Below are positions 9,272-51,200 of a DNA stretch of 64,000 nucleotides, piece after piece. The stretch's first letter is position 1. The number at the start of each line of letters is the position of its first letter. Source of the stretch: Parcubacteria group bacterium ADurb.Bin159 (GTDB taxonomy: Bacteria; Patescibacteriota; Patescibacteriia; UBA2591; MWDC01); the NCBI GenBank assembly GCA_002070355.1, contig MWDC01000001.1:1996-65995 (forward strand). The letters are read 5' to 3'. The position numbers were made by a program, and so were the translations under genes. The notes under the pieces are model-generated. The model worked only from the letters and a program-made list of their open reading frames with translations. It was not told where the DNA came from and ran no database searches.

Positions 9272-9280
9272 AAAAAATAT

Positions 9281-13043: not shown

Positions 13044-13084
13044 AAATATGTTAAATGTTTAATATCAAAACCTTAAATTTTATT

Positions 13085-27630: not shown

Positions 27631-29055
27631 TTACAAAATTTCAGAGGAAGGAGTTTCTGGAGAAAGTTCCTCTGCTGGTTTTTCAGTGATAAATTGAAAA
27701 CTATTAATCATCATTTCAAAAGCAGTTCTAAAATTTGCTTCTTCTAATGTCCCCAAACTATAAGAAAAAATAATAATTTTGTTTTCGTTTGATAAATATA
27801 AAGTCAATCTATCCGGACTAAAAACGGCTTCTTTGCCATTAATAATGGTTTTAAGCAATTCATTTTCAAACACTCCCGGCGCAGCAGAAAGATACCATTG
27901 TAAAGGAGAGAGCATAGAAAGATTGTCTTCTACTGTTAAACTAAAACGTTCTACTGTACCTGCATCGGGAATAATTAGAATTTCTCTTTCTTCGGTTTCG
28001 GGAATAGTTTTTAAGCTCCACGAACTAGGATAAAAAATAGCCCAATGATGAGTTAAATTAGAATAAACTTTTATTAAGGAAGAAGTAGCTAATTTCGCTT
28101 CATCTCCTTTAGTAGGGTCAGTTAAATTGATTATTTCTTGACCATCGGATATGCCATCTTTATCCGTATCCGGATCATTAATTCCAGTATTAAAGAGAAT
28201 CTCTTCCATATCCGTTAAACCATCGTTATCAGAATCAAGACTTTTTTTAATTATTGGTTTTGTGTTAACTTCTTCGGTAGCAATATTAGATTTATGGCAA
28301 ACAATAGCATAAATTTCTCCCGGCAAAATATCTGTTTCTACTATTAATAAATTATTTTCTTTGTCCAATGTGGCGGGAAGAACAGACCAAAAGTTATCTT
28401 TGAAATAAGCCAAAGCTAATTTTTCTTCTAATTGAGAAGAAATGATGTTTTCTTTATAATAAGCAGTAATTTTTATGGGTTTATTAAAAGGAATATCTGC
28501 CGGGCTAATTTTATAAGGGCCAACAATCACTTGATAATCTCCTTTATTATAAATTTCAGTAAAAGGCAATTCTTCTAAATTAAAAGATGGTTCAAGGGTT
28601 GGTTCGTAGGCTCCTTCAGGTATAGACAACTCCAAAGAAGAAATTATTTCTTGATTTTGATCTTTAATGGTAGCTTTTAAATCAAGCGGTGAAGAAACAA
28701 CAACTTCTGTAGTTTCTTCCGGCGATTCAATTGGCTCTTCTATTAGATTTTCTTGAACTAAAGGAGAAGGCGAAGGGATAACTTTTGGGGTTAAATAATT
28801 AGTTTCAACCCACCAATAAAGTCCTCCCCCTATAACAAGTAAAACAAAAACAGCAATTAAAAGAATCGCCCAAGGAGAAAGACCTTTTTTTATAGATGGA
28901 CCACCCTTTTTAGCCATTGCCTTTCTAAAGGTTTCCGGCATAACATAAATTTCTTCTTCTATCTTTTCTTCTTTCACTTCTTTTAACAAATCTTTTTGGG
29001 AAACATCCGGGGTTTGGTCAAACTGCTCTTGTTTTTTGGGTTTTGATTCAAACAT
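27631..29055 (-). CDS. hypothetical single-pass membrane protein with thrombospondin type-3-like Ca-binding repeats (DxDxDG)
   Basis: Cytoplasmic K/E-rich N-terminus, TM (WAILLIAVFVLLVIGGGLYWW), extracellular region with DSDNDGLTD...DPDTDKDGISDGQE. Confidence 0.45.
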   Translation of the reverse strand: MFESKPKKQEQFDQTPDVSQKDLLKEVKEEKIEEEIYVMPETFRKAMAKKGGPSIKKGLSPWAILLIAVFVLLVIGGGLYWWVETNYLTPKVIPSPSPLVQENLIEEPIESPEETTEVVVSSPLDLKATIKDQNQEIISSLELSIPEGAYEPTLEPSFNLEELPFTEIYNKGDYQVIVGPYKISPADIPFNKPIKITAYYKENIISSQLEEKLALAYFKDNFWSVLPATLDKENNLLIVETDILPGEIYAIVCHKSNIATEEVNTKPIIKKSLDSDNDGLTDMEEILFNTGINDPDTDKDGISDGQEIINLTDPTKGDEAKLATSSLIKVYSNLTHHWAIFYPSSWSLKTIPETEEREILIIPDAGTVERFSLTVEDNLSMLSPLQWYLSAAPGVFENELLKTIINGKEAVFSPDRLTLYLSNENKIIIFSYSLGTLEEANFRTAFEMMINSFQFITEKPAEELSPETPSSEIL

Positions 29056-29107: not shown

Positions 29108-32100
29108 CTATTCTGAAACACATACTGTTGGACGCTCTATGCAATCAGATCCCGGATAACATTTTTTACAACAACAATCATCACCTAATTTTGGTCCACA
29201 TGTAGCAATTCCTCCACAGGTATTCCAACCGCTTGGACAATTTCCAAGTGGTAATTCACTTTTAGGTATACAGCTACCCTGATAACAAACTCTAGAACCA
29301 GAACCGTCGCCACATACGGTACAATTGTTAGCATTATTACAACTGCTAGATCCGGGTCCAAGCCCATCGCAAATTTTGCAAACACCGCAAGAATCGCCCT
29401 TTTGTTTAAATGCATCTGCCGGACACGAAGCAGAGCTACCACTACAATATTCTTCTTTGTCGCAAGCACCAGCTGCCGGTCGACAAGGAGCATCAACCTC
29501 ACTCCCACCTGAGCAAACTTTATTGGCTGCTACATTAGCGACATCATCACCTTTATCATTAGTTGGACCAGTCGGACAACTACTAGAAGTGCCACTACAT
29601 TTGTAAACATCTCTTTTTTTCTGGCATTGCCCATTACACCCATTCCAACTAGAATAACCACAAATAGTACCCTCTGATTTAAAACGACATCCATCACAAC
29701 AAGCACTTTCTTCTGAACATTGGCAAGCAAACCACACTCCGCCTCTGCAATATTCTTTATCTCCGTCGTCATCTACATCAACAACTGTATTTGTAGGTTG
29801 GCAACCGTTATGAGCACAATATGTTGGAGAGGAGCAACAAGCTCGGTCAGTAGAATCAGAAGAACAAGCGCCACTATTGCAAGTTCTAGTTTTATAATAT
29901 TCTCCTGAATCATCGCCACAACACATATTATACCAACAAGCACTATCTACATTTCCATATGTATATCCCCAACCATAATTGCTACTCTGACAAGAATCTT
30001 TATTGAAATCACAATCATTATTATAAGGATCTCCGGAACAACCGTTCTTATTATCGCCGCAACCCCTGCATTGACCATATGAATCACAAAAATATCCTGT
30101 AGTATTACCTATGTTACATTTAGTAAACTTTGGTTTAAATACATCTGTCGGGCACGAAGCAGAGCTACCACTACAATATTCTTCTTGGTCACAATCGCCA
30201 GCTGCCGGTCGACAAAGGGTAGTGTCTGATCTAAAACGGCAACCATCACAACAATCATTTTCTACTGAACATTGGCAAGCATACCATTTTCCACCGCTAC
30301 AAAATTCTTTATCTCCATCGCCATCTACATCATCAACTTTACCTGTAGGTTGGCAACCGTTATGAGCACAATATGTTGGAGAGGAGCAACAAGCTCGGTC
30401 AGTAGAATCAGAAGAACAAGCACTACCATAAGGACTGCTATCGCATACTCTGGTTTTATAAAATTCTCCTGAATCATCGCCGCAACACATATTATACCAA
30501 CAAGCGCTATCTACATTTCCATATGTACATCCCCAACCATAATTATTACTATACCTACAAGAATCTTCATTGAAATCGCAATCATTATTATAAGGATTTC
30601 CGGGACAACCGTTCCCATTATTACCGCAACCCTTGCATTGACCATATGAATCACAGAAATATCCTAAAAGGCAATTATGTTGTCCTGAGGTATAATAATC
30701 GCAAATGCCGGTATTATTTTGGCAATAACCTGTTAAACAACCACTAGTGCCACATTGATCATTAGGATCCATATCGGAATTATATGAACTTGATACTTTC
30801 TTACATTCTCCATTATAACAATATTCACAAACGCCATTGCCACAGGGCTCAAAATCATCTTTTATAATATGACATCCATCACAACAATCATTTTTTACTG
30901 AACATTGGCAAGCATACCATTTTCCGTTACTACAATATTCTTTATCTCCGTCGCCATCTACATCGATAATTGTACCTGTAGATTGACAACCGTTATAAGC
31001 ACAATATGCTGTAGAGGAGCAACAAGCCCTATCACCAGGATTAGAAACACAAGCGCCACTATTGCAAATTCTAGTTTTGGGGAATTCTCCTGAATCATCA
31101 CCGCAACATTTACCTGACCAACAATCGCCAGTTGCATTTCCGAAAGTATTTCCCCACTGATAACCCCTTGTCCCATAAAGAGAAGAACAAGTAGGGGGAT
31201 CAAAATCGCAATCGTAACTGAAATTTGGGGAGCAACCATTATCACTGTTATTACTGCCGCAACCCTTACATTCACCATTTTGACAAAATTCATTACTATG
31301 GCATGCTTTTTCACAATACTTACAATGGTTTTTATCAGTATTTAAATTAATTTCACATCCATTAGAAGCATTTTGATCGCAATTCCCATATCCCGGATTA
31401 CAATATATTCCCGAACAATCGTAATGACAAGTGCCATTAGCTACCTGTATTTTTGTGTCGCAAACCTCACCACAATTTAAATTTATTTTTCCATTCCCAC
31501 AAGCCAAAGTCCAATTCGATTCTTGACAAACATAATTTTTATTTTCCCAATTAACACAAGAATCTTCATTAAGACAACAAGTATCTTTATCACTGCATTT
31601 TTGCCTTTCCGGATTAAGACATTGAGAAGCCAAGCAACCAAAAAATTCTGCTTCTGAATGTTTGTATTCTACATTAAAAGCAGTAGTAGGGCACATACAG
31701 TTAAAATTTTCTTCACAGAAACAAATTGGTTCAGGTGTTATTTCAAACGGCCGTGGTTCGCAAACTCCATTCCATTGGCATAAAAAATGTTTTTTACATT
31801 CAAATTCTGTTTCATAATTATAGCAATTTGATTTCCAATTTTCAGGCTGGGCATATTCAAAATGAGCGTATAATTTATATCCTCCCCCTACTTCTTTAGT
31901 TAAGGGGTTGATTGTCGCTCGATAAAGATAAATAAAAGAATCATCAGGTACACTATATGTTTTGTTTTTTAGATTGAAACAAGTTCCATCACATTGGGGA
32001 TTATCTTCCGGACAACTAGCGCATTGTTTTGCTCCAAAAACGTTTAAAGGATCAACAGGCAAAGATTTTCCCAAAGCCACGCCTAATGTTTCTTGCCAAG

Positions 32101-32398
32101 AAGGCCATTTAGAACTGCTCATTCCGGCAATATAAGTGCCGCTTTCTAATTTAGGATAATAGCCAAACTTATTCTTATAATCTTCTAAAAATTGGGCTAT
32201 AACTTGGATATCTCTTAATCTTTGCCAATCTCTCTGTATTTTTGCTTTGTCGTCTTGAGTAATTGAATAACCCCCTTCTGCTTGAACCGAAAGAATTTGT
32301 TTTACCACAAAAACGCCAATAACAAAAATAATTATACTTAATATAATCCCGATATACTTTTTTTGTTTTGAAAAATATTTAAACATAATGATTTTCAC
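29108..32398 (-). CDS. secreted/anchored cysteine-rich repeat protein (1096 aa) with possible pilin-like N-terminal region and three ~200-aa Cys-rich tandem repeats
   Basis: N-terminal hydrophobic anchor. The segment DIQVIAQFLEDYKNKFGYYP resembles the post-helix region of type IV pilins/pseudopilins (inference). Three repeats share CGxNxNGC..NNDCDFN..DSACWYNMCCGDDSGE..DRACCSSPTYCAHNGCQPT..VDVDGDGDKEYC..ACQCS..CCDGCRF. Confidence 0.5.
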   Translation of the reverse strand: MKIIMFKYFSKQKKYIGIILSIIIFVIGVFVVKQILSVQAEGGYSITQDDKAKIQRDWQRLRDIQVIAQFLEDYKNKFGYYPKLESGTYIAGMSSSKWPSWQETLGVALGKSLPVDPLNVFGAKQCASCPEDNPQCDGTCFNLKNKTYSVPDDSFIYLYRATINPLTKEVGGGYKLYAHFEYAQPENWKSNCYNYETEFECKKHFLCQWNGVCEPRPFEITPEPICFCEENFNCMCPTTAFNVEYKHSEAEFFGCLASQCLNPERQKCSDKDTCCLNEDSCVNWENKNYVCQESNWTLACGNGKINLNCGEVCDTKIQVANGTCHYDCSGIYCNPGYGNCDQNASNGCEINLNTDKNHCKYCEKACHSNEFCQNGECKGCGSNNSDNGCSPNFSYDCDFDPPTCSSLYGTRGYQWGNTFGNATGDCWSGKCCGDDSGEFPKTRICNSGACVSNPGDRACCSSTAYCAYNGCQSTGTIIDVDGDGDKEYCSNGKWYACQCSVKNDCCDGCHIIKDDFEPCGNGVCEYCYNGECKKVSSSYNSDMDPNDQCGTSGCLTGYCQNNTGICDYYTSGQHNCLLGYFCDSYGQCKGCGNNGNGCPGNPYNNDCDFNEDSCRYSNNYGWGCTYGNVDSACWYNMCCGDDSGEFYKTRVCDSSPYGSACSSDSTDRACCSSPTYCAHNGCQPTGKVDDVDGDGDKEFCSGGKWYACQCSVENDCCDGCRFRSDTTLCRPAAGDCDQEEYCSGSSASCPTDVFKPKFTKCNIGNTTGYFCDSYGQCRGCGDNKNGCSGDPYNNDCDFNKDSCQSSNYGWGYTYGNVDSACWYNMCCGDDSGEYYKTRTCNSGACSSDSTDRACCSSPTYCAHNGCQPTNTVVDVDDDGDKEYCRGGVWFACQCSEESACCDGCRFKSEGTICGYSSWNGCNGQCQKKRDVYKCSGTSSSCPTGPTNDKGDDVANVAANKVCSGGSEVDAPCRPAAGACDKEEYCSGSSASCPADAFKQKGDSCGVCKICDGLGPGSSSCNNANNCTVCGDGSGSRVCYQGSCIPKSELPLGNCPSGWNTCGGIATCGPKLGDDCCCKKCYPGSDCIERPTVCVSE

Positions 32399-32451: not shown

Positions 32452-35400
32452 TTATTCTTTATTGGTGTTAAACCTCCAATTTTTTATCAATTGCTCGTAA
32501 ATATCCAAAGTTTCTGGTTTGGCATTATCGCTATAAGAGAGTAAATAAATTAAACTTTCTATTTGTTGATTTTCTTTTCCCGGATTAATTACATTAAGGG
32601 CGCCAACATAAACTGTCCGTCCGCTTCTAATAGCCGGATAACCGTCGATTTTTAAAGATGTGTAACCTTCTGTTTCTTGAATAGGAATATTTTTCACAGT
32701 AGTTTTATACCACTCTTCCGGAGTTAAATAATCCGGATTTTCATATACTCGCAAACCAATAATGTCCTCATTTTCTAAATTAGAAAAAATCCATTCTTTT
32801 CTTAAATTCGAATCCTGGCTCGGGTTTGGAGAAAATCTTCTAAGTCCAGGTAAAACTGATTCCTTATATTCATCTAATCGAAACATTGTTTCATCAATAT
32901 AAAAATCGCTACCATTTTCTCCTGTATTGTTATAACCAATGCTTAACCCAATTTCATTTCTCAAATTACCTTGACTATCTAAAGTTTGAGTCATTCCCTC
33001 GGTATATTTAAATTTATAAGTAAACAAAGCCCAATCTTGATAATTTCCTTTTGGAATTATACCTAAGGATATGACTGGATAAGAAGATGTTTGATAAGGC
33101 CATTGCACAAATCTACATTTACAGCAAGAATCAGTACTATGACTTATCCGAGTTTCTAAATCTTTATTCAGATATTGACATTCTTGGCTGCATCGTCCTG
33201 CTTTTTGACAATAGTCTAAAGAAGAACTTTGTCCACACCAGCCGAGATTATAACATAATGTTAGACTGATATCTCCCGCCAAATGTCCTTTCCCATAAAA
33301 ACTAAAAATATAATCTTGTCCAGGAATTAAATTAAAAGGAGTAGTGTCATAAACAGCTCGCGCCCACATTGTTCGATTAGTATAGGGCCAAACTAAATCT
33401 TTAGATTCAGATACTTGACAGCTACCACAATTTGGATCATCGGCAAAATCACAAATTTTTTCAGTCCCTTTCCAGACACATTTATTAGCGTAAGGAAAAC
33501 TTAAAGGCCAAGAACCATTTTTTATTCCACTACAAATATCATTACGGCATTGACCAGGATAAGGCTCATTCGCATCTTGATGAATAAGTAAACTATTTTG
33601 TCCCGTATAAGACTCGATTGGATTTATACTTACATTAGAATGGCTTTGAAAACTCCTCTGCCATTGATTACTATTAAAGAGAAGAACTTTACCTATGTTT
33701 CCGCGACAATATTTGAGTTCAAAATTTGTTTCCGTATCTTCAAAGGACCAGGGCATTTCACAAAGATAATTTTCCACACTAGCATAATCAGAAACTGTCA
33801 CTTCTTTATTATTATTTACTTCAGCTTTAGCTATTACTTCGGTAAAGCCATTTTGATTTTGAGACATTATTTTTTGCGTAGAACCATCTTCATCTTTGTC
33901 ATCAGGAAGAGAAATAACTCCCGCATTAGTAAAACTCCATGTATAAGACCAGTTATAATTTTCTGTTCCTTCAATCTCTTGATCATCTTCTGAATAAGCA
34001 GTGGCTTGTAAACTTAAAGAAAGATTGGGTTTTTGAAAAAGAATATTTTTAGATGATTCTACTTTAATATAATCTGCATCAGATAATGAACCATCTATTA
34101 CTGAAATATTAATTTTAGATAATGCGCAAGGATCCTCAGCGGTTTTAAATTGCCAAACTTTGCCCGGAGACATTGCTAATTCGTATTTGCTTTTAACTCC
34201 TGTTGGCCCTCCTAAAATAATTACTTTATAAAAAGTGTTTAAAGATAGTCCCCATTGAGATTCGTTTGGTTTAATATAAATTGTAGTCTTATTATTTTTA
34301 GTTACCGATGAAAGCTTTGGCGATATTTCCTGCCAAATTATTTCATCCCATTGAATAATTGGCACAGTCGCTATTTTATAATCTTGTTTAGTAAAAGGAA
34401 AAGATTCTCTTTCTGATAATGTTCCTCCCCCATTTGAAGCCATTGTTCCCTTATAAAGTTTTATTGTTTCTTTATTCAAACTATTTGTCTCCATTGCTTG
34501 GTCAAAAGTGGCAGAAATAATAGTATTAGGGCAAACATTTTGCGAGTAATCAGCCGGACTAAATGTTTCCACTACCGGATGAGTGGCCACAATTAAAGGA
34601 GCACGGTCGGATTGACCCCCCTCTGTCTTTTCTACTTTAACATAAACTTCACCCAAACCTTTGCTGACAACTTTGGCTGTAGAAAGGGATTCTCCGGGTG
34701 TTCTTTCTTTAAAAGCAGCGATATTTTCCGGTGTTAACCAAGAATCTTTTTTTTCTAAACTCCATACCCAATCACTATAATCATCTGCTGATAAATAATT
34801 ACAATTAGATGAATAGACCTCTGTTTTATATGAAATTTCCTTTGGTTCGTCGGGGTAATATATCATACCTTTTCGAGGCGTTAAACAAACTTTATTCAAA
34901 GAACACTGTTTATCACCTGTTTTAAAGATCCAAACATAATCATCATCAGGAGAACCATCTTTTTTATTGTTTTTGTTTCCATCTAATGGCCAACCAAAAA
35001 TAGCGTCTCTTATCCCATTAGGACCACTTCTAAGAATAACTTGATAAATTGTGGAAGGATCAAGATTAATTTTGATTAAAAGTAGGGTCTCTTCATCATC
35101 TGTTTCTATATAACGATTGTTTATATCCCAAGAAACATTTTCCCATTTATTTTTACAATCATCTAATTTAGATTGATTACATTTTTCAATGATAACATTA
35201 GAGGAGTCAAGAGTAGTTTCCTCCATTTTATGATTAAATCTTACCCCGATTCGGCTATTAAGACAATTATCTGAAGAATCCGGCCAAGGTGAAGGAGATT
35301 GGCCCTTTAAATCACAAACATCACAATTTTTATTTTCTATAACCTGAGGAAGACCAGTGGGGCTTACCTTTAAATAAGCGCAAGTACGGTCTTTTTCCGG

Positions 35401-38400
35401 GCTGGCAATGCAACTTTTTTCTGAAGTTGAAGCCTTAATGAAGGTCTCCCCATAATATTTAGAAGTAGCTGTAGTAGAAAGTCCGTAAGGGGGTGATGAA
35501 ACACTGGCTACAGTATTATCTGTCGCCTCCCACGTAAAATCATCTACGCAAACCGGTTTGCCATCTGAATCTAAGGCTAAAGCAGCAAAAGAAAGAGTTT
35601 TATTAAGTCCTTTTATAATTACCGGACCGCGAGGGTAAACATTAATTTGAGCCACTTTACATGTTTTTGTTTTATCTGTGCTAACTTGAAAATTAACACT
35701 ATAACATTTTAAATCGTTATTCCAAGTACAAGGAATGGCATTGCTATTCTCAAAAGAAACGCCCTTATCGGATATAATTCCTTTTCCATTAGCACTGCTA
35801 ATAATTTCTACTTCGTATATTTGACCATCTATTAAAAGACAATTGCTCGGATAAAAAACAACTTTTGTTTTATCTCCTTCATTCCCCAAACTAATCCTGC
35901 CATTAAGATAACATCTTTTCTCCTTATCTTTATAAATTCCTTCCCCTTCTCCACAAGCATCAGCTTGTCTTGACACTTTAATATTATCTGTGGTTAAAGA
36001 ACCATAATTCATTAACTGATCAAAATTAATTTCAATGGAAGTATTCATCCCCACTTTTCCATCCTCTGTTGAGCAAGTTTTAATAGATTCAATTTGCGGT
36101 TTAGCCCAACAACATTTATTCTCATCTAAAAATCCACAACCCAGAGTTGCTCCGCACTGGCTATCTTTAGTGCAATCGCAACATAAACCTCGAGAAGGGC
36201 TATCGCAAGGAGCAATATTTTTTATGCAGTGTAATTTTCCGCATTGGTTATCATTATTACAACAACAACGACAATCTTCTTGGCTATTATTAGATAAACA
36301 AACGAAAGAACCTTGGCAAGTGTCCGCGCCCGCAGCGCAAACAGAAGAATTCTCTAATTTACAATTTTGCCCCGGTTTGCCAATGTCAATATTAATTTTA
36401 AAAGGAAGTTTATTACTCGGATTATTCCCCAGAGGAGAAACCCAAACCTTGCCTTGGCCAGCAGAAAGACCAAAAGGGACAACAGATTCTATCTTTTTAT
36501 CTCCCCAAGAACTCCCTTCACTCTCCTGAATCACTGATTTTATATCTTCAAAATTAATTTTCCCCGCGCTGCTGCCAAATGATTGGCCAAATAAATTAAC
36601 CGAATCATTAATTTTGCCTTGATTTGGTTCAACTTTAGAAAGGCAAGCTCCCATAGCCGTTCCTTCTATTGTCTTAAAACTTGTTAAAACATATTCTTTT
36701 TCTGGAATTTGGCAATGCCCTTCCTTTAAACAATTACCTTCACAATAATCCCAACCGCTTACACATTTATTACTATCAATTCGGCAACAAGGTGTTTTTT
36801 CTGGACAGTCATCATTAGTTTGACAGGCACCTAATCCTTTAATTACTCCACTTGTCTCTTGGCTAAAACCAGAATAAACTGTTTCTGTCCCTCTTTTAGC
36901 TCTTACTTTATAAGTATATGAATCTCCTTTTATAAATGTTCCGTTATTTTCAAAAATATAATCTCCTCCTTGTTTTATAAAAATAAAATTATTTGAAGGA
37001 TTAGGAGAACAAGTATTATCAATTAAAGAACAAGTGGTTAAAAGATTAAAATTTAATTGCTTTGATGTTCTTTCGTAAATTTCAAAAGCTGTGGCTAAAT
37101 TAGAAGGATCGTTATAATTCCATTTTAATTTTATTTGAGTCAAAGTTGAGGCTGGTATTGCCAAACCAGTCGGTTTAGGAAAAACCACACATTTATTCTC
37201 AAAACAAGTTTTCCCAATCATATTTTCCGGTGAAGTGTTTTCAGGAAAACAATCTTTATCTTCATTACAATCTCCACCAATAAACGGATCGTTTTCTTCG
37301 GTCAAGCAATCACTAAAATTAAAAGTACAATCAGAATTACACAATAAATTACCTCCAACATAATTATCATCAAAATCAACACAATTTTTTCCTCCTAAAT
37401 CATCGCCATCGCACTCTTCATTCTCATCTTTTGTCCCATCATAATTACAAGGAGATAAACCCTGACAAATACAAGTAGTTTCATCACAAACATTAGAAGC
37501 GCAAATATTATTATCAGCTTGACAGCCCTCTGTATTTTCATCCATATCACAATAAGCCCCCTGACAAAGTCCACAATCCGCTCCTCCACAATCAACTCCT
37601 CCTTCATCTTCATCAATAACTCCGTTAAAGCAATGTCCGGCTCTAATAAACGCTATTTTTTCTTTTTCGTCTAAATTATCAGCAAAATCATAAGCTTCTA
37701 TTTTAATTTTGTGCTGACTGCTAATTTCTAAAAGAGAAGTATCCCAATTATATTCATAATTATATTCTCCTGCTGCGGGTGTTCCGTTTTGAATATCTTC
37801 TATATCCCAAGTATTATCGCTGTTTAAATCAATTTTAAAAATAACTAAATTAATCCCTGCATCGTCGTAAATAGTTGTTTTAATTTTAATATTTCCGGAA
37901 GGTACATATTTACCTTGCGAAGGTTCAAAAACAACGCTCTTAATTTCCGGATTTTGAGTATCTACCATATTATTTGTTTTGAATGTCCACGAACAATTTC
38001 CATTATTACAATTAAGATTTTGTCCATTTTCACTAGTTACATTAGATGAAATAACTACTTTATATGAAGAATCGCCGTCAAAACAATGAAGAGTGGCATT
38101 ATCCGGACAAAATGCTTCGGGTGTAAATTTAACTTTTTTCCCTTCTGCTAATTGCTCTAAAGAACCGCTTACTATTGTCTCGTTTTCGTCTATTACTTTA
38201 CTAATAATAAAATTTGTGTTGTTTACGCTCTCTGTGTTTACGGTTTTATTAAAAATAGCGCTGACTATGGAATTTTTCGGCACAGTAACTCCTTTTAAAG
38301 GAGCAATATTTTTAATATAAAAAGGGCTTGGACCCGGCGGTGGCACGTCTTCACAATTAAGGCAACTATTGTCAAATTGCCAAATACCGTTAAGACAACG

Positions 38401-38844
38401 CAAGCAGCCTGAGCAAGTTCCCGAGATATCGCATTCTTTTCCTATAATTTCTTCGTTAGTTAAAATATCTTTTTCAATGGCTCTAATAATAAACCAAGAA
38501 ATAGAATAAGCCAAAACCACAATGATTAAACCAATCAAACCATTAATCATTAACTTTTTGGCTTTATCAATTTTTTCCTGATTGCCGCCGGAACTCATCC
38601 ATTGAAAGCCGCCGATGATGATAATAATTGTGGCTATTAAACCTAAAAACCCTAAAACCCATTTTATAATATTACCAATAACAGTTACTAAAGGCGTAGT
38701 GGGTAATTGTGAAGTGGTTAAAACTTCTTCCATTCCTTCGGTTAATTCTGCAGCAAAAACCGGACTAGTTATTCCTAAAACTGTTCCGATTATTATAAGG
38801 ATTAAAAAAATATTAAGGGTTTTGTTTTTGTTAAAAAACAACAT
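32452..38844 (-). CDS. giant surface protein (2130 aa): pilin-like (VirB2/TrbC-type) N-terminal module plus Cys-rich, bacterial Ig-like and beta-sandwich domains
   Basis: N-terminus has signal peptide, ELTEGMEEVLTTSQ, two TM helices (LVTVIGNIIKWVLGFLGLIATIIIIIGGF / LMINGLIGLIIVVLAYSISWFI), identical over ~125 aa to the 38930-41701 protein. Downstream are multiple Ig-like repeats and Cys-rich modules. Confidence 0.5.
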   Translation of the reverse strand: MLFFNKNKTLNIFLILIIIGTVLGITSPVFAAELTEGMEEVLTTSQLPTTPLVTVIGNIIKWVLGFLGLIATIIIIIGGFQWMSSGGNQEKIDKAKKLMINGLIGLIIVVLAYSISWFIIRAIEKDILTNEEIIGKECDISGTCSGCLRCLNGIWQFDNSCLNCEDVPPPGPSPFYIKNIAPLKGVTVPKNSIVSAIFNKTVNTESVNNTNFIISKVIDENETIVSGSLEQLAEGKKVKFTPEAFCPDNATLHCFDGDSSYKVVISSNVTSENGQNLNCNNGNCSWTFKTNNMVDTQNPEIKSVVFEPSQGKYVPSGNIKIKTTIYDDAGINLVIFKIDLNSDNTWDIEDIQNGTPAAGEYNYEYNWDTSLLEISSQHKIKIEAYDFADNLDEKEKIAFIRAGHCFNGVIDEDEGGVDCGGADCGLCQGAYCDMDENTEGCQADNNICASNVCDETTCICQGLSPCNYDGTKDENEECDGDDLGGKNCVDFDDNYVGGNLLCNSDCTFNFSDCLTEENDPFIGGDCNEDKDCFPENTSPENMIGKTCFENKCVVFPKPTGLAIPASTLTQIKLKWNYNDPSNLATAFEIYERTSKQLNFNLLTTCSLIDNTCSPNPSNNFIFIKQGGDYIFENNGTFIKGDSYTYKVRAKRGTETVYSGFSQETSGVIKGLGACQTNDDCPEKTPCCRIDSNKCVSGWDYCEGNCLKEGHCQIPEKEYVLTSFKTIEGTAMGACLSKVEPNQGKINDSVNLFGQSFGSSAGKINFEDIKSVIQESEGSSWGDKKIESVVPFGLSAGQGKVWVSPLGNNPSNKLPFKINIDIGKPGQNCKLENSSVCAAGADTCQGSFVCLSNNSQEDCRCCCNNDNQCGKLHCIKNIAPCDSPSRGLCCDCTKDSQCGATLGCGFLDENKCCWAKPQIESIKTCSTEDGKVGMNTSIEINFDQLMNYGSLTTDNIKVSRQADACGEGEGIYKDKEKRCYLNGRISLGNEGDKTKVVFYPSNCLLIDGQIYEVEIISSANGKGIISDKGVSFENSNAIPCTWNNDLKCYSVNFQVSTDKTKTCKVAQINVYPRGPVIIKGLNKTLSFAALALDSDGKPVCVDDFTWEATDNTVASVSSPPYGLSTTATSKYYGETFIKASTSEKSCIASPEKDRTCAYLKVSPTGLPQVIENKNCDVCDLKGQSPSPWPDSSDNCLNSRIGVRFNHKMEETTLDSSNVIIEKCNQSKLDDCKNKWENVSWDINNRYIETDDEETLLLIKINLDPSTIYQVILRSGPNGIRDAIFGWPLDGNKNNKKDGSPDDDYVWIFKTGDKQCSLNKVCLTPRKGMIYYPDEPKEISYKTEVYSSNCNYLSADDYSDWVWSLEKKDSWLTPENIAAFKERTPGESLSTAKVVSKGLGEVYVKVEKTEGGQSDRAPLIVATHPVVETFSPADYSQNVCPNTIISATFDQAMETNSLNKETIKLYKGTMASNGGGTLSERESFPFTKQDYKIATVPIIQWDEIIWQEISPKLSSVTKNNKTTIYIKPNESQWGLSLNTFYKVIILGGPTGVKSKYELAMSPGKVWQFKTAEDPCALSKINISVIDGSLSDADYIKVESSKNILFQKPNLSLSLQATAYSEDDQEIEGTENYNWSYTWSFTNAGVISLPDDKDEDGSTQKIMSQNQNGFTEVIAKAEVNNNKEVTVSDYASVENYLCEMPWSFEDTETNFELKYCRGNIGKVLLFNSNQWQRSFQSHSNVSINPIESYTGQNSLLIHQDANEPYPGQCRNDICSGIKNGSWPLSFPYANKCVWKGTEKICDFADDPNCGSCQVSESKDLVWPYTNRTMWARAVYDTTPFNLIPGQDYIFSFYGKGHLAGDISLTLCYNLGWCGQSSSLDYCQKAGRCSQECQYLNKDLETRISHSTDSCCKCRFVQWPYQTSSYPVISLGIIPKGNYQDWALFTYKFKYTEGMTQTLDSQGNLRNEIGLSIGYNNTGENGSDFYIDETMFRLDEYKESVLPGLRRFSPNPSQDSNLRKEWIFSNLENEDIIGLRVYENPDYLTPEEWYKTTVKNIPIQETEGYTSLKIDGYPAIRSGRTVYVGALNVINPGKENQQIESLIYLLSYSDNAKPETLDIYEQLIKNWRFNTNKE

Positions 38845-38929
38845 ATAAAAATGTAAAAACAGAAAATTAAAATGTAAAACAATAGATTAAAATTTTAAAT
38901 TCTACATTTCAATTCTCATTATTCCGCTA

Positions 38930-41701
38930 TTATAAGTAATTCTTGTAATCCTGCAAAATTTGTTCCGCCGTGCGAGCGTAATCATAAATTTTAACTTCAT
39001 CGATGAGACCCTTGAACTCTTCTCTTCCGCTTGCCGCACGTCTACCGATTGCAATTGTATGATTAGCATCTGAAAACACTGGGATGCTTGAAGCATATGA
39101 GCCAGAACCAACTCGAGTTCCATTTACGTATATAGTATAACTAGTAGGCGTGACTACATATACAATATAATACCAAGTATTAAGTTGATAACGAAAAGGG
39201 GCATCTGCCCTAATAGTAATCCAATCTGTTCCATATTTAATCTCACCATTTCCATATCCAATATCACCATGTATAGCAGTTCCATACTGAAACTTTATAT
39301 CAAAACCATAGTAATTGGGACTTCTTGTGCCAATAATACAGCGAATATTAGTATCTTTAACCATTGCCCACGCTCCCACTGTAAAACTACCTATTATAGT
39401 AGGATTTCCGCAATTTACATAATCGTCTACTCCGTCAAAACTTAAACATTTTCCTGATTTGCACATATCTTCGGATTGCCAAGTAGCACCATAAATCTTG
39501 CCATCGTTATTATTGACGCTGTCGTCATAAGCAGTACTTCCATGTCCCTCATCAAACCGCCAATAAGCCACTGGCGGCAGCGACAGTCCGGCAGTTATTT
39601 GACCCTGAACTGCCGGCGTTATTTTTATATTATCTTTTAACCCCTTTACATCCGACGGGATTCGTATAACTATATTATTTTCCGGAGAATAATTTTTAGG
39701 GCATTCTTCTTCAGACAAACAAACAGAAGGGTCATCTTTTGAAGGACAACAGCGATTTATTTCTTGCCAAGAAAGAATATTATTGCTTAATATTCCCTGC
39801 CAAACATCAGTGCCGTTAGTATTAGTTAAAAATTCTATTTTCCCTTTTTCTGCAGCTAATTTACATCCTCCATTTATATAATCCCAAAAAAAATTTTGGG
39901 ATTGCTTGTCGCTTTCACATTTCCCGTCAGGGCAACATCCTAAATTATAGCCATGAATAGTAACACATTGGCCAATTGCACCCGAAGGTGGGTCGATCCA
40001 ATCAATATAAGGATTTCCTTTATTAATTTGCCCGCTTGTCTTAAATGACCAGCGATAATAAGACGCTTCCATACTATTGCCATAAATATCTCTTACTCCA
40101 AAAGCAAAATCAGGATCCAAATTACAAGTTTCTCCTTTTTTTTCTCCACCATAAATTGTAGCTTGATAATTAGTTTCTGCGTCTAAAATAGCATAAGGTT
40201 TATAAATAGCTCCCTTTTCTGAAATTGTTATTTCTCGAGCTAACATTGAAGAAAGAATAAAAACATCCTCATTAATAGAGGTTGGGTCAATGGCTTCATT
40301 AAAATTAGCCATCACATCACTCATCCGGTCAATATCTTTTTCTTGATTCGCTGGTGAAGTAGAAATAATTTCCGGACCAGTTAGATCAAACTCTTCATTC
40401 GTTTGAAACGTCCAAGAGCATTTTCCATTTCCGCAATCTAAATCCATACAATTTGTTCCTTTAAGTCCGGTTATTTCTACTTTAATGGTACTATTAGCCG
40501 GAAAACAATGACAAGCAGCCGCCTCTCCGGGACAAAGGTCAGTCGGCCTAAACATAAAACTTTTATCTGTTAACCGTTCAAAATATCCTGGCACTCCATC
40601 TTCACCTATTTTTACTTTTATAGTAGCATCATTTAAGCTGTTTGTTGACCAAGATTGGCATTCCTGCCCTTCTGCGCAATTTGGATTATAAACAATCAAA
40701 GTATTAATATCTATAGGTTTAGTAAAAGTAACGGCAATGCCAGCGTTTCTCGCCACAGTATTACCTTCTAAAGGCAAAGCGCTTTCTATTTGGGGCGCTA
40801 CATTATCTATAAAATTTCCCACAGTAAAAGTCCACACAATATCTTGACCTAAAGTGTTTCCCCCAGATCGGGTGCCTAAAATTCCTTCTTTTCCGCTTTT
40901 TAACATTATACGATAGCTCCCGGGATTAAAACAACCGCAACAGCTGTTATTCTTAAAAATAAAATTACAATCTTTATTTCCATCTTCTTTAATTTCACAT
41001 TGAGAAAGAAGATTCTCACAAGTTCCTTTAGGAATAAAAATAAAACTATTCCCTTTAACTATAATAGACCCTTCTATATTAGTGCTATTGCCTCCTTCTA
41101 TTTTTTGAACATAAACTGTCGGATTAGAGCAATTTTCTTTGTCTAATCTAAAACTATCAGCATTAAGTTTTTGATTAAAACTAACTATTACTTTAGTATT
41201 TTGTGCCACCGTTTCTCCGGCTTTTGGCGACCGAGAAGTTATGACTAAATAATTGGCTCCTCTGAGCTGATAATGGTTCCCCGGTCCCTCTTCGCCCCAT
41301 CCCCCTCCTTCTTCTCCTGGACCGATATTTTCTTCAATGGCTCTAATGATAAACCAAGAAATAGAATAAGCCAAAACCACAATGATTAAACCAATCAAAC
41401 CATTAATCATTAACTTTTTGGCTTTATCAATTTTTTCCTGATTGCCGCCGGAACTCATCCATTGAAAGCCGCCAATGATGATAATAATTGTGGCTATCAA
41501 ACCTAAAAACCCTAAAACCCATTTTATGACATTGCCAATAACAGTTACTAAAGGCGTAGTGGGTAATTGTGAAGTGGTCAAAACTTCTTCCATTCCTTCG
41601 GTTAATTCTACAGCAAAAATGGGGCTAGCCATTCCTAAAATTGCCCCGATTATCATCACGATTAAAAAAATATTAAGAATTTTGTTTTTATTAAAAAACA
41701 T
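38930..41701 (-). CDS. large surface protein (923 aa): same pilin-like N-terminal module, Ig-like (Big_5-type) repeats and a C-terminal LamG/concanavalin-A-like domain
   Basis: The N-terminal 125 aa are a near copy of the 32452-38844 N-terminus (about 95% identical at DNA level, 41318-41701 vs 38460-38844). The C-terminus (VAYWRFDEGHG...GLIDEVKIYDYARTAEQILQDY) matches the LamG repeats of the 48-52 kb genes. Confidence 0.5.
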   Translation of the reverse strand: MFFNKNKILNIFLIVMIIGAILGMASPIFAVELTEGMEEVLTTSQLPTTPLVTVIGNVIKWVLGFLGLIATIIIIIGGFQWMSSGGNQEKIDKAKKLMINGLIGLIIVVLAYSISWFIIRAIEENIGPGEEGGGWGEEGPGNHYQLRGANYLVITSRSPKAGETVAQNTKVIVSFNQKLNADSFRLDKENCSNPTVYVQKIEGGNSTNIEGSIIVKGNSFIFIPKGTCENLLSQCEIKEDGNKDCNFIFKNNSCCGCFNPGSYRIMLKSGKEGILGTRSGGNTLGQDIVWTFTVGNFIDNVAPQIESALPLEGNTVARNAGIAVTFTKPIDINTLIVYNPNCAEGQECQSWSTNSLNDATIKVKIGEDGVPGYFERLTDKSFMFRPTDLCPGEAAACHCFPANSTIKVEITGLKGTNCMDLDCGNGKCSWTFQTNEEFDLTGPEIISTSPANQEKDIDRMSDVMANFNEAIDPTSINEDVFILSSMLAREITISEKGAIYKPYAILDAETNYQATIYGGEKKGETCNLDPDFAFGVRDIYGNSMEASYYRWSFKTSGQINKGNPYIDWIDPPSGAIGQCVTIHGYNLGCCPDGKCESDKQSQNFFWDYINGGCKLAAEKGKIEFLTNTNGTDVWQGILSNNILSWQEINRCCPSKDDPSVCLSEEECPKNYSPENNIVIRIPSDVKGLKDNIKITPAVQGQITAGLSLPPVAYWRFDEGHGSTAYDDSVNNNDGKIYGATWQSEDMCKSGKCLSFDGVDDYVNCGNPTIIGSFTVGAWAMVKDTNIRCIIGTRSPNYYGFDIKFQYGTAIHGDIGYGNGEIKYGTDWITIRADAPFRYQLNTWYYIVYVVTPTSYTIYVNGTRVGSGSYASSIPVFSDANHTIAIGRRAASGREEFKGLIDEVKIYDYARTAEQILQDYKNYL

Positions 41702-41743: not shown

Positions 41744-42208
41744 CTATTCATTTGTCTTCTTTAATATATTTTTGATTTTTTCCGCTACTTTAGTTCCCTC
41801 TGCTTTGCCTTTTATTTCCTTCATTACCTCACCCATTATTTTACCAAATCCCGATAAATCTTCAACCTTTAATATAGCCATTTTATCAAGAATAATTTTA
41901 TCAATTTCTTCGTCGGTTAATTCTTGAGGTAAATAAGATTGAAGAATAACTATCGCTTTTTCTTCTTTTTCCGCCAAATCTTCTCTGTTTCCTTTTTTAA
42001 ACAAAAAAATAGCCTCTTTTCTTTTTTTAACTTCAGCGCGAATAATTAGAAGGACATCCTCGTCCTCTAATTTTTTATCCTTAGCACGAAGTTCAATTTC
42101 TTTATTATGAATAGAGGCTAATAGCAAACGAAACGCGTCTTTTTTCTCTTGATTATTTTCTTTTTGGCTCAAATGATAATCCTCTTCTATTTTTTCTTTG
42201 AGCATCAC
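41744..42208 (-). CDS. GatB/YqeY domain protein
   Basis: 154 aa helical protein in the rpsU-yqeY arrangement conserved in many bacteria. Confidence 0.6.
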   Translation of the reverse strand: MMLKEKIEEDYHLSQKENNQEKKDAFRLLLASIHNKEIELRAKDKKLEDEDVLLIIRAEVKKRKEAIFLFKKGNREDLAEKEEKAIVILQSYLPQELTDEEIDKIILDKMAILKVEDLSGFGKIMGEVMKEIKGKAEGTKVAEKIKNILKKTNE

Positions 42209-42268
42209 AATATATTAAATATTAAAATAAAAAGTCAAAAGTTAAAATTAAAATTTTAAATTCTAAAT

Positions 42269-42487
42269 TTACTTTATCATTCCCATTTTTTTCATATATT
42301 CTCGCTGTTCTTTTCTTCGAAGCCGTACCAAAGCGGATTGCCGGCGAAGGTCGCGGCTTTTTGGTTTAGTATAAAACATCCGTTCTTTGTATTGATTAAT
42401 AAGACCGCTTTGTCGGCTTATTTGAGAAAAACGACGTAACATTTCTCCCACAGATTCTCTAGGTTTTTTTTCTACTTTTATAGGCAT
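42269..42487 (-). CDS. rpsU: 30S ribosomal protein S21
   Basis: 72 aa, very basic, with S21 motifs (VGEMLRRF...QSALVRLRRKEQRE). Confidence 0.8.
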   Translation of the reverse strand: MPIKVEKKPRESVGEMLRRFSQISRQSGLINQYKERMFYTKPKSRDLRRQSALVRLRRKEQREYMKKMGMIK

Positions 42488-42632: not shown

Positions 42633-43030
42633 TTTCGGGGTTGGCTTATAAGCCGAATTCTGTTCTTCCCTTAAAAGAGAAGGGGCAATCATCTATCTAG
42701 GCCATTGATTGCTCAATGGCTCGAGCGAGCACTTGCTCTTGCACTAGATGGGGTTTACCACCTTCTTTAATCGCTTAAAGAAGGACCTCTTTTACAGAGG
42801 ACTTTTCACCTTTTGCCAGCTCTTTCTTGTTTAGAAAGAGCTAACTAGTATTGTCTCTGTGGCACTTTCCGTATCCAAAAGATTACTCTTTTGAATCCTT
42901 GCCGTTAGCAAGGCATCACGACACTCGACTTTACAGCCGAGAGAGTGTTCGGACTTTCCTCCCCTTTCTCAATCTTATTCTATAAAGAATATTAATTGGA
43001 AAAGGGCGATTGCCAAGCCAACCCCGGAAA
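42633..43030 (-). ncRNA. rnpB: RNase P RNA, bacterial type A
   Basis: Read on the minus strand: P1 pairing CCGGGGUUGGCUU...AAGCCAACCCCG; P4 5' strand GGGGAGGAAAGUCCGAAC; AGUGCCACAGAGACAAUAC; GGUAAACCCCAUCUAGUGCAAGAGCAAG; P4 3' strand ACAGAAUUCGGCUUA. No ORF, and GC is higher than the flanks. Confidence 0.85.
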
Positions 43031-48201: not shown

Positions 48202-51200
48202 TTAAATTCCAATTCTTATTGCTCCGCTATTGTAATCCTCTAAAATTTGTTCCGGCGTACGAGCGTAGTTATAGATACGGACATCATCGATAAGACCATT
48301 AAAGTACGAATAATTTCCCCCTATTTTTTCTCCTATATGTAGAGGACCGGTACCGTTTTGATCATTAGCAAAACCACTACTTCCTGTTACTGAGTTATCA
48401 AATTTGCCATCAATAAAAAGTTTAATACCTACATCTCTGTCAAAAATCCCAGTAATATGATGCCAGGTATTATCTAAAACTTCCGGCTTACTACTCTCAA
48501 CTATTGTTTGTAACCCACTAGCTGGAGAAAACGAGATTTGTAATTTTCTAGTCGTGGATGCTTGACGAATCCACCAATAATTCCCATTATCAGATCCATA
48601 ACCATATTGTTTCCAAATAATACCCGCATAACCATCTCCAGAAATAGGAAGAGAAGCTTTAATCCAAAGAGCAACAGTTAAATCATGTGTTCTTGCATTC
48701 AAACTATCATTATGTGGCATCCTTACATAATCATCAACTCCATCAAATTGCAGGGCGGAGTTAAGTTTGCCGACGGTCCAAATAGGACCGTCAGTGCCAT
48801 AACCTGTACCGTCATTATTATTATCTGAATCATCATACAAAGTTTGGCCTGAGGCATTGCCCGAAGTATATTCATCAAATCGCCACTGAGCTACCGGTTT
48901 GCCGTGATTATAATCCCAAGCAATCTGCGCCGGCGTCCGCGCGTAATCAAAAATCTGCACGTGGTCAATAAGACCATTAAAAAATTGAGAACCGGAAGTT
49001 CTTTTATCTCCCCCAATTCTATGAACAGTAGTAAAATTTATGTCGCTACCGCTAGTAGTCGCCATAGTATATTGAATACCATCAACATATCCATAAATTT
49101 TTCCTGCTGATTTATCTCTAACAAAAGCTAAATGGTGCCATTTATTGTCATTTAATTGAATGTTAATATAAGCATCAATTTGACCGTTATTCCAATAAAA
49201 ACGCGGTTTTGCAGGACCCGCTAATTCCCAATTTGAATTAGGAGAATCATTATAATTACCCAATATAACACCAACCCTATCTGTAACATCAGACGGAACC
49301 TTAATCCATGCCTCAACAGTGTTACTAACCAAACCAATATTAAGAATATTTGAAAATTCTACATAATCATTACTCCCATCAAATTCTAGGGCACTGCCAA
49401 TTTTGCCCGGGGAATACCAAGTAGGTTTATAATCAAGAGTGCCCCCACCCAAAGTCCCTCTATTATTATTGCCCGATTTATCATTAGCATAATCCCCTAC
49501 TTGCTCATTAAAATCCCAAAGAGCTATAGGTGGATTGCCGCCAAAACCGCCATCATCCCAAGTAGAAGCCGCGTTTTTCGTTGTGCCCATTACTACTGCC
49601 CTGCCTTGATTATACTCCATTTTTATCTCCTCCTCGCTTAAAGCGTAGTTATAAATTTTAACTTCATCAATGAGACCCTTAAAAACTCTGTTCATAACGC
49701 CCTTGCCAATATTAAATGCCGTATCATAATCTGAATTAGTGGCAGTACTTTGAGATTTTAAAACTCCATCTAAATAAGCTTTAGATATACCCGAATCAAC
49801 AACCCCAACCAAATAATGCCACTTATTGTCTTCTATCGATCCGAAATATGCTCTATCACTCCAATGCCCTGAATGGAAAAAATAATTATCGGCAGATCCA
49901 TCTTTACTGAAAGAATAAGAGGGCTCATAATATGGCTCTGGATTATTAACCTTCCCTTTCCAGAGTATTCCAGCCCAATCTGGAGATCCTCCCGAAGTTT
50001 TGATCCAAGCTGATATGGTAAAATTTCCACTTCCAAATTTAAAGTTATTAATACCCCCGCAATTTACATAATCATCTGCTCCGTCAAAACTCAATGCTTT
50101 GCCGAATTTACCGTTATTGGTCCAAGCAGCACCGGTGATAGTGCCATTATTGCCAAAACCACTGGAGTCGTAGACCGTGGTGCCATAGCCCTCATCAAAT
50201 TTCCAATAGCCAACCGGAGATTTTTGAGCCGGCCGGCTGGCATTCATATCCTCCAAAATTTGCTTCTGCGTGCGAGCGTAATTATATATGCGAATATCAT
50301 CAATAAGACCAGAAAAAAATTCGCCTGCCGCAAATCCTCCTCCCACACTATCTTGGTCAACTCCTATCACTAAAGAACCATTTGCCGTTATAGAACCACC
50401 CGAAGCAAGTGTTCCTGAATAAGATAATTTACCATCTTTATATAATTTTGTTGCCCCGTCTGTCCCATTCCACGTTACAGCAATAAAATGCCATTTATTA
50501 TCATTTATAGATACACCAGTAGTCACATTAGATGTTACGGTATAAATCTGTATATTAGCGCTATTAAAAATTAACCAATTATTATCAGAAGCTGTTGAAG
50601 CGTAAGAAATAATACCATCGTTAGAATCAGATGTTTTTATCCAAAATGTTGTTGTTATGGCCGATTTTGGAAAATTAGAAATTGGATTTTTAATCACATA
50701 ATCATCTACTCCGTCAAAGGAGCAAGCAGTTCCATATTTGCCGGGTTTGGTGCAATCCATACCCATAGCATTGGCTCCATAATGGGTAGTACCATTATTG
50801 CCATTGCCGGAAATATCATAAATTGTTTTATTGTCTCCAGCGACTCTTTCGTCCATTTTCCAGTAGCCGACTGGTGGAGGCCCCCATTCGTAAAGAGCGC
50901 GGATTTCGCGATTATTAAGCGCGCGATTATATATGCGGACATCATCAATAAGACCATTAAAAGAATAACTTCCACCATGAAAATCGCCTATTCTAAAAAC
51001 TCCATTAGTAGTTGTTGAATTTCTATAACCAGCTGTTCCTTTTTCTACTCCATCAATAAACAATTTTGCATAATTATTCGCATAATCATTAACAACAACA
51101 AAATGATGCCAATTAGCATCAGGATAACCATTATAAAAAGGATTATTTTCTGAATCTCCTGTATTCCAATTAATTTTTCCGCCAGTAAAATATATATTGG

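Follow-up and report, generated by a model that had tools for sequence, protein, structure and literature searches.

Paired giant genes of a Parcubacterium join near-identical VirB2-like pilin modules to adhesin-type ectodomains

The window analysed here is a 64-kb stretch of DNA from Parcubacteria group bacterium ADurb.Bin159 (Patescibacteria, class ABY1), and our subject is a pair of adjacent genes within it that encode very large proteins starting with almost the same pilin-like module. Open reading frames (ORFs) of 2130 and 923 aa had been proposed in an initial annotation made from the sequence alone, and both exist with exactly the boundaries listed below. For the 923-aa gene the public record has a downstream start, which yields 908 aa. 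The features of the pair are as follows.

32452-38844, minus strand: ORF of the giant pilin fusion, 2130 aa, with a signal peptide, a complete VirB2-like pilin, a cysteine-rich and Ig-like stalk, and a C-terminal PsbP/Mog1-like domain
38930-41701, minus strand: ORF of the mid-size pilin fusion, 923 aa, with a signal peptide, a VirB2-like pilin, a glycine-rich linker, an Ig-like stalk and a C-terminal LamG domain
41612-41701, minus strand: predicted signal peptide of the 923-aa protein, aa 1-30, cut between IFA and VE (hydrophobic segment 5-34; site placed by the -3/-1 rule)
41330-41611, minus strand: mature pilin module of the 923-aa protein, aa 31-124, consisting of transmembrane helix 1 (TM1), a lysine-rich loop and transmembrane helix 2 (TM2), with a PF18895 match at aa 49-115
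38752-38844, minus strand: predicted signal peptide of the giant, aa 1-31, cut between VFA and AE (hydrophobic segment 7-35; site placed by the -3/-1 rule)
38470-38751, minus strand: mature pilin module of the giant, aa 32-125, forming a putative gene-conversion tract with 41330-41611
37465-38469, minus strand: conserved stalk base of the giant, aa 126-460, with a cysteine-rich linker, Big_5 and a Big_7-like domain (Pfam on the segment; covered by 48-67 of 70 homologs)
38957-39436, minus strand: distal LamG of the 923-aa protein, aa 756-915 (Laminin_G_3), within a strain-variable cassette
32455-32817, minus strand: conserved C-terminal domain of the giant, ~120 aa, without a Pfam family, with a PsbP/Mog1/LpqN-like fold, internal in unsplit homologs

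Past the module, Pfam recognised Big_5 in both proteins (79.3 bits in the 2130-aa protein and 75.1 bits in the 923-aa protein, cutoff 23.6), so the presence of this domain, as first annotated, stood; the claim of many Big_5 repeats held only partly, since just two stretches per protein were significant and the remaining matches, to Big_7, Big_2 and TIG, were weak. In the 923-aa protein the stalk is cysteine-containing and Ig-like (Big_5 twice, TIG-like) and is followed by the LamG domain that had been expected at the C-terminus (Laminin_G_3, 80.6 bits against a cutoff of 27.6). The cysteine-rich modules were likewise borne out: the 2130-aa protein has 95 Cys and the 923-aa protein has 29 (3-4.5% Cys). 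Hydropathy revealed no hydrophobic segment in the remaining 800 to 2000 residues of either protein past the module, and neither has an LPxTG-like motif, a C-terminal hydrophobic segment or a PrgB-type Pfam match. A consensus scan of this AT-rich locus for promoters and terminators was uninformative (89 promoter-like sites where 63 were expected, and 12 terminator-like sites where 10.6 were expected).

The first ~126 aa of the two proteins are 90% identical and the underlying DNA forms a direct repeat (38465-38764 and 41325-41624; 300 nt, 96% identical), in agreement with the near-identical N-termini of ~125 aa noted at first. The mature modules (92 codons) are 97.5% identical in nucleotides and differ by one amino acid, the leader peptides are clearly more diverged, and the similarity stops sharply after ...SWFIIRAIE; over the 92 codons that follow the module, the two genes are 30% identical in nucleotides, which is the random level. 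A tblastn search found no third copy of the module in the window. Each protein has three hydrophobic segments (leader 7-35, TM1 51-85 and TM2 94-124), and a short, basic, lysine-rich loop, SSGGNQEKIDKAKK, joins TM1 to TM2. An AlphaFold2 model built with 34 sequences gave a helical hairpin (helices 52-83 and 89-127) with a predicted local distance difference test score above 90 over most of its length; the signal peptide, two helices and lysine-rich connector first read from the sequence were thus all recovered.

A repeat of 300 nt and 96% identity, with its copies 2.9 kb apart, can mislead short-read assemblers, and the duplicated N-terminus or the long fused ORFs might on that account be products of misassembly or merged gene calls. 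Both copies recur in independent assemblies. The window DNA is also present in NCBI contig JAKJDU010000003.1 of assembly GCA_022705795.1, and identical 2130-aa and 923-aa proteins are recorded for ADurb.Bin159 (OQB44510.1 and OQB44511.1), so that two NCBI assemblies agree; in a third assembly, from the Joint Genome Institute (JGI) and a close strain, both copies are again in tandem and have distinct flanks. The copies moreover differ at 7 of 276 module positions and in their signal peptides, and more than 80 homologous fusions come from unrelated samples. Misassembly and merged gene calls are therefore ruled out.

The assignment of the module to the VirB2/TrbC-type pilins and to the T4SS_pilin family of the candidate phyla radiation (CPR), where T4SS stands for type IV secretion system, had been a guess from its pattern, and a hidden Markov model (HMM) search of the N-terminus turned it into a significant match. 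T4SS_pilin (PF18895) scored 39.7 bits in the 923-aa protein, 40.0 in the 2130-aa protein and 44.8 with the isolated module, against a cutoff of 26.6; TrbC/VirB2 (PF04956) exceeded its cutoff of 27.9 with the module alone (31.7 bits) and stayed below it with the full-length proteins (24.7 and 23.9 bits). In NCBIfam the module had a sub-threshold match to the pilin-like conjugal-transfer protein of Mycoplasma integrative and conjugative elements. The 33 proteins obtained in a word-indexed search with the module are without exception stand-alone pilins of 97-155 aa and at most 65% identical to it, the closest being those of 119-132 aa (57-65% identical). Aligned with the module, the stand-alone pilins end 5-12 residues beyond the fusion point, from which we infer that the fused module is a complete pilin with an added C-terminal extension. 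The loop and its flanks (GGFxWM[ST]SGGNxEKIxKAKK) are as conserved in the fused modules as in the stand-alone pilins, and the seven invariant columns of the 34-sequence alignment are invariant in fused and stand-alone sequences alike.

The junction itself bears on whether the two parts stay together. If the protein were cleaved after the pilin module, it would release a pilin and a secreted or wall-associated giant, and the fusion would serve co-translation, stoichiometry or export instead of anchoring. C-terminal processing is established for propilins of the VirB2 family (27 aa in TrbC and 5 aa in TrhA; PMC12037004), the tail motif of stand-alone pilins, TEIL, is kept at the giant's junction as KDILT, and a flexible glycine-rich linker follows the module in the mid-size proteins. 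However, no conserved cleavage motif is evident at the junction across six genomes, the window has no TraF-like peptidase, and the removal of 800 to 2000 aa would be unprecedented in this family; we consider such processing improbable.

Pilin fusions of this kind recur, as the initial annotation had stated for the T4SS_pilin family. A search with the full 923-aa protein gave ~24 proteins of 530-1600 aa that combine PF18895 with Big_5, and of the 71 homologs of the 2130-aa protein ~60 (1419-3722 aa) combine PF18895 with Big_5, TIG, DUF4215, VWA or LamG. With the module alone, phmmer against 1.84 billion representatives returned 33,400 matches at E <=1e-3; by HMM classification of the best 150 of these, 45 are stand-alone pilins, 87 have 2-13 tandem modules and 16 are single-module fusions, and in all fusions among those 150 the module lies at the extreme N-terminus. 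The pilin fusion is thus a recurring family. Its architecture can be read from precomputed Pfam annotations and is in that sense already known to databases. Several proteins from outside the window (P0061, P0063, P0064, P0085 and others) carry 2-13 tandem T4SS_pilin modules in one ORF, joined by short cysteine-containing linkers; by HMM, P0063 (1775 aa) has 13 modules and P0061 (1147 aa) has 11. They may be "polypilins" with up to ~26 transmembrane helices, or artefacts of stop codons and gene calling under alternative genetic codes.

The fusions also occupy a conserved locus, marked upstream by two small genes.

41744-42487, minus strand: yqeY (41744-42208; Pfam YqeY) and rpsU, encoding S21 (42269-42487), the upstream synteny anchors of the locus

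Wherever flanks were available (L002, L003, L011, L012, L014 and the strain variant L015), rpsU and yqeY are followed by the mid-size and then by the giant fusion, and the portion from rpsU to the mid-size fusion was seen in L013; in whole or in part, the arrangement is shared by at least seven other Patescibacteria contigs. Across the ectodomain the mid-size orthologs are 36-54% identical to the window protein. In the window yqeY, the 923-aa gene, the 2130-aa gene, the 1096-aa gene described below and the next ORF run in one direction with gaps of 42-85 nt, and the locus takes up ~1.8% of the 684-kb genome. On the upstream side of the fusion genes, directly before rpsU-yqeY, lies a class A RNase P RNA (191 bits; 42633-43025, minus strand), which places the locus in a core and presumably well-expressed neighbourhood. 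Two other genomes, L002 and L003, have hisS and a gene for signal peptidase I (Peptidase_S26) 2-3 kb upstream of the fusions, just ahead of rpsU-yqeY; no S26 gene occupies that position in the window. The ORF that follows the 1096-aa gene, ahead of mreC, has 474 aa (27631-29055, minus strand; called by NCBI as 163 + 312 aa) and bacterial TSP3 (thrombospondin type 3) repeats; its product probably belongs to the same cluster of surface proteins.

Because a search of contigs with the ectodomain profile gave only five loci, a test for concerted evolution of the two modules was limited to six genomes that each carry both genes. Identities were as follows for the module and for the first 330 residues of the ectodomain.

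Mid-size against giant, same genome: module 59-95% (mean 80%), ectodomain 22.5%
Mid-size against mid-size, between genomes: module 44.3%, ectodomain 38.5%
Giant against giant, between genomes: module 43.6%, ectodomain 28.7%
Mid-size against giant, between genomes: module 44.1%, ectodomain 21.5%

An orthology signal is present in the ectodomains but absent in the modules, and therefore the gene pair is old and its modules have been repeatedly homogenised. The proportion of synonymous differences (pS) between the two modules is 0.10 in the window, which indicates recent conversion, and 0.22 to 0.81 in the other genomes; the nonsynonymous proportion (pN) is low throughout, for example 0.023 against a pS of 0.44 in L012 (pN/pS ~0.05). 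This pattern fits episodic gene conversion followed by purifying selection. Elsewhere in the window, two tandem genes for 292-aa family-2 glycosyltransferases (20634-21512 and 21589-22467, minus strand; repeat D4) are ~91% identical in DNA and look like a second recent duplication or conversion in this small genome.

The giant gene continues beyond its stop codon, a feature that the initial annotation had not covered, any more than the conserved locus, the recurrent gene conversion or the lack of T4SS genes in the window.

29108-32398, minus strand: 1096-aa cysteine-rich protein, the split-off C-terminal part of the giant, as judged by alignment to unsplit giants
32279-32398, minus strand: signal peptide of the 1096-aa protein, aa 1-40, cut between SVQA and EGG, a new leader

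Homolog coverage of the 2130-aa protein defines three conserved blocks, at 1-450, ~1150-1700 and ~2010-2130, the last being the terminal domain of ~120 aa, which is present in 47 of 70 homologs and is internal in giants of at least 3000 aa. Residues ~47-210 of the 1096-aa protein align to the segment directly behind this domain in unsplit giants: in P0111 the domain matches at 1614-1729 and the 1096-aa protein at 1730-1895, and the same holds for P0205, P0206 and P0204. Between ...NWRFNTN and the conserved ...K..L.RD..R, the window has a stop codon, 53 nt and a new leader of 40 residues (MKIIMFKYFSKQKKYIGIILSIIIFVIGVFVVKQILSVQA, then EGG). The 1096-aa gene thus arose by gene fission with a gained export signal and not by a simple nonsense mutation. 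Its product has a weak Disintegrin match in Pfam. Three internal DNA repeats of the gene (29399-31157, minus strand; ~550-630 nt, families D1, D7 and D10, 71-91% identical) encode cysteine-rich units of ~200 aa with weak disintegrin-like matches, and KGD motifs stand at residues 949 and 1000.

At the distal end of the mid-size protein the locus differs between strains, as seen by comparison with L015, a contig of a close, 99%-related strain from JGI sample 3300010346.

38788-39610, minus strand: strain-variable cassette comprising the distal domain of the mid-size protein, the intergenic spacer and the signal-peptide codons of the giant, without a match in L015

Identity between the two sequences is 97.1% over the upstream genes and the mid-size gene as far as residue ~700, and 99.6% from about codon 20 of the giant onward, just upstream of the mature pilin module; between these points 1.57 kb in L015 takes the place of 0.82 kb in the window. 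In P0035/L015, which is 93-99% identical outside the swapped distal cassette, the mid-size protein has propeller-type Pfam matches (SGL, Reg_prop and Vgb_lyase) in place of LamG, and the spacer and the giant's signal peptide are replaced as well. The LamG of the 923-aa protein in turn contains a 134-nt patch (39444-39577 against ~52022-52155) that is 91% identical to a LamG gene 12.6 kb away, and the two LamG domains that share it are just 42% identical overall, which suggests conversion between LamG cassettes. From the distal swap and the LamG patch together we conclude that the distal domains behave as exchangeable cassettes, with the repeated module bordering one breakpoint. LamG units are found elsewhere in the window too: a 1086-aa protein with five LamG/pentraxin-type domains and no obvious signal peptide (48202-51462, minus strand) is followed by a membrane-anchored single-LamG protein of 264 aa (51484-52278, minus strand), and the LamG units of both are tied by DNA repeat family D2 to the LamG of the 923-aa protein.

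Conserved module DNA with variable C-termini, and a strain-level swap that covers the distal domain and breaks just upstream of the repeated module, would also be expected of a polymorphic effector-type system, in which the module would be a trafficking or recombination handle and the swappable C-termini would be delivered effectors or toxins. The variable domains, however, are of binding type (LamG and propeller-type matches) and not toxins or enzymes, no small immunity-like ORF follows them, and Ig-rich stalks are typical of adhesins; a delivered effector is accordingly a very remote prospect here.

The genome that carries the fusions also encodes stand-alone pilins. An array of four stand-alone T4SS_pilin genes (113, 127, 139 and 175 aa) is present on contig JAKJDU010000005.1 of assembly GCA_022705795.1 (L006), and its members are 27-55% identical to one another, which fits the diversified arrays of the literature, unlike the homogenised fused modules. 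The fourth array pilin (175 aa; L006 11035-11562) continues past the pilin core with ~30 hydrophilic residues, a small-scale version of the C-terminal extension of the giant fusions; taken with the tandem multi-module proteins, this tail shows that the family tolerates extracellular extensions at both ends. For VirB4 we relied on a published survey table, in which ADurb.Bin159 is listed as ABY1, with 683,849 bp, 603 coding sequences and "Presence of VirB4: Yes" (Table S1 of PMC12102498).

We propose that the locus encodes modular surface adhesins anchored by a pilin module, to which we give a probability of about 0.65 whatever the answer to the question of a pilus. Surface display and adhesion are deduced from sequence, and host attachment by such adhesins is consistent with the predicted topology, the Ig and LamG content and the strain-variable distal domain. 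The Sec pathway would insert the fusion protein, and signal peptidase I would cut it after VFA or IFA. The pilin hairpin would then lie in the cytoplasmic membrane with both ends outside and the lysine-rich loop inside. Such a placement of the basic loop in the cytoplasm fits the positive-inside rule. Structures of conjugative pili show the positively charged helix-loop-helix turned towards the lumen (PMC12037004), which places the termini at the opposite end. TM2 would be the signal that exports the ectodomain, 800 to 2000 aa long, in which a glycine-rich or cysteine-rich linker would lead into disulfide-stabilised Ig-like domains projecting from the cell. The distal tips would bind a host or substrate surface, through the lectin-type LamG domain on the 923-aa protein and the PsbP-like domain on the giant, where the latter probably docks the split-off cysteine-rich partner of 1096 aa. 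The distal domains would be exchanged between strains as cassettes, while episodic gene conversion and purifying selection would keep both pilin modules alike in each genome.

Several observations weigh against this reading, or against its extension to a pilus. No T4SS Pfam family was found in the ORFs scanned across the 64-kb window, and the 10 kb to each side of the stand-alone pilin array contain neither virB4 nor another T4SS gene. Identity between the fused modules and the array pilins of their own genome does not exceed 53%, so that co-polymerisation is not obviously favoured, and a VirB2-type lattice is packed too tightly to accommodate 2000 aa on every subunit, so that the fusions could at best be rare or terminal subunits. 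Foldseek of the module against the PDB gave generic helical hairpins only, all with E above 1, a result that neither supports nor refutes pilin homology, and phmmer found no sequence relative in the PDB for either the module or the 2130-aa protein; because of this, membership in the pilin family rests on profile HMMs. Most of the giant (~1700 aa) is without a recognisable domain, and the term adhesin therefore rests on a minority of its sequence. Gene conversion between adjacent direct repeats, finally, could be largely neutral.

These observations bear mostly on what the module does. It may have been exapted as a plain two-helix membrane anchor and export signal with no link to a T4SS or pilus, which would be a sub-case of the adhesin proposal and a rival only to incorporation into a pilus. 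The setting of the locus amid housekeeping genes (RNase P RNA, rpsU, yqeY, mreC and argS) with no T4SS gene in 64 kb, the ectodomains too big for regular lattice packing, and the divergence from the array pilins noted above all speak for a plain anchor. Generic anchors, however, usually keep hydrophobicity and not sequence, whereas here the loop and flanks are conserved as in stand-alone pilins, all seven invariant columns are common to both kinds of protein, pN/pS is ~0.05 in L012, and the module pairs are kept alike in six genomes. A plain anchor is a serious possibility, to which we would give somewhat less than even odds; the kept pilin motifs, the low pN/pS and the modules kept alike favour more than a passive one.

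Since the modules keep all pilin-specific motifs, we tentatively consider that a T4SS may extract the fusions from the membrane and build them, as minor subunits that bear adhesins, into a pilus of stand-alone pilins, an arrangement that would be the VirB2-system analogue of the "modular" type IV pilins. Routine incorporation into the lattice is made less likely by the lack of linked T4SS genes and by the cargo's size. That a VirB2-type pilus lattice contains "modular conjugative pilins" that present giant, host-specific adhesins on the filament or at its tip is, on present evidence, rather unlikely. If it were true, the essential T4SS of CPR bacteria would be in part an adhesin-presenting organelle, the homogenisation of the modules would reflect the need for both adhesins to fit one lattice or one extraction machine, and the repeated module DNA would have a second role, as a recombination handle by which distal binding cassettes are swapped.

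Most members of the very large group Patescibacteria are uncultivated; these ultrasmall bacteria live on the cells of hosts, to which they are attached, and reviews describe the function of their T4SS and VirB2-like pilins as completely unknown (PMC11665869, PMC12857230). T4SS pilin-domain genes are among the most highly expressed genes of unknown function in Patescibacteria of digesters (PMC10936435), the pilin array and T4SS are essential in Southlakia, the one species tested (PMC10633639), and the survey cited above, the only systematic one, detected no T4SS-associated adhesins in its CPR dataset (PMC12102498). By covalently joining a pilin to adhesin-type ectodomains, the locus offers a testable candidate link between the pilus system and host recognition, and its homogenised anchors and swappable tips point to where host specificity would reside. 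Even as an anchor only, the module would be a way of anchoring giant surface proteins in monoderm-type CPR cells that had not been described before. In the literature searched we found no description of pilin-fused giants, of the locus, of its concerted evolution or of the split.

The rest of the window encodes housekeeping and envelope-biogenesis functions, including aminoacyl-tRNA synthetases (argS among their genes), MreB, MreC, GreA, RecJ, RNase P RNA, glycosyltransferases and RuBisCO-type AMP salvage. For the last of these, genes for a RuBisCO large-subunit homolog, an AMP phosphorylase-type protein (Glycos_transf_3/PYNP_C) and an IF-2B-family protein (ribose-1,5-bisphosphate isomerase-type) stand in a row at 10310-14017 (minus strand); the nucleotide-salvage RuBisCO pathway is known from CPR bacteria and archaea. 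Adjoining mreB is an intergenic unit of 245 nt (9028-9272) that begins with the hairpin GGGGACAGTCCCC and matches no Rfam family at the gathering threshold. It returns at 81-86% identity as two halves (57321-57413 and 59355-59508), which flank a segment of ~2 kb with a methylpurine glycosylase gene and a 382-aa gene of unknown function.

Among known systems, the nearest are the VirB2-like pilin arrays of CPR bacteria such as Southlakia epibionticum (PMC12102498), which belong to the same family by profile HMM, are at most 65% identical to our modules and share the layout of leader, transmembrane helix, lysine-rich loop and transmembrane helix. The members described there are ~100-175 aa long, whereas here the pilin is the N-terminal 6-13% of 923-aa and 2130-aa proteins; the known paralogs are divergent (mean 25%, maximum 54% identity; PMC12102498) and often lie near virB4, whereas the copies in the window are homogenised and adjoin rpsU-yqeY, not T4SS genes. 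The conjugative pilins TraA (F), VirB2 (T-pilus), TrbC (RP4) and TrhA (H-pilus) have a similarly long signal peptide, a two-helix hairpin and a positive loop, but they are 60-80 aa when mature, sometimes cyclised or trimmed at the C-terminus, work in diderm hosts and have no fused domains. VirB5 at the pilus tip, PrgB of Gram-positive conjugation and TraN have the role proposed here, target-cell contact for a T4SS; the fusions have no sequence relationship to them in Pfam or NCBIfam and no LPxTG, and the adhesin would here be covalently part of the pilin.

The principle of joining a pilin to an adhesive module is the same as in the modular type IV pilins PilB and PilC of the monoderm Streptococcus sanguinis, which carry a vWA or lectin module and so make the pilus itself adhesive (PMC8179133, PMC9934059). 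Those pilins, however, form a non-homologous filament with a class III signal peptide, a single N-terminal helix and PilB/PilC-type assembly machinery, whereas the window proteins have type I signal peptides, a VirB2-type hairpin and added modules 10-20 times larger. No class III signal (G, the cut, then F/M-T-L-I-E; motif G-FTLxE) was found in the window fusions, whose leaders end in VFA before AE and in IFA before VE, and the likeness to type IV pilins is therefore one of analogy. Giant Ig-rich adhesins with Big_5, TIG and LamG resemble our proteins in their tandem Ig-like domains, cysteine-rich spacers, lectin-type distal domain and strain-variable tips, but the anchor here is an N-terminal VirB2-type hairpin and not a lipobox, a sortase signal, an autotransporter barrel or a type I secretion signal. 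CPR pilins, their arrays and their essentiality (PMC10633639, PMC12102498, PMC12857230) and the modular-pilin principle in type IV pili were thus known already; the conservation of the locus, the concerted evolution of its modules, the gene split and the cassette swap are new here.

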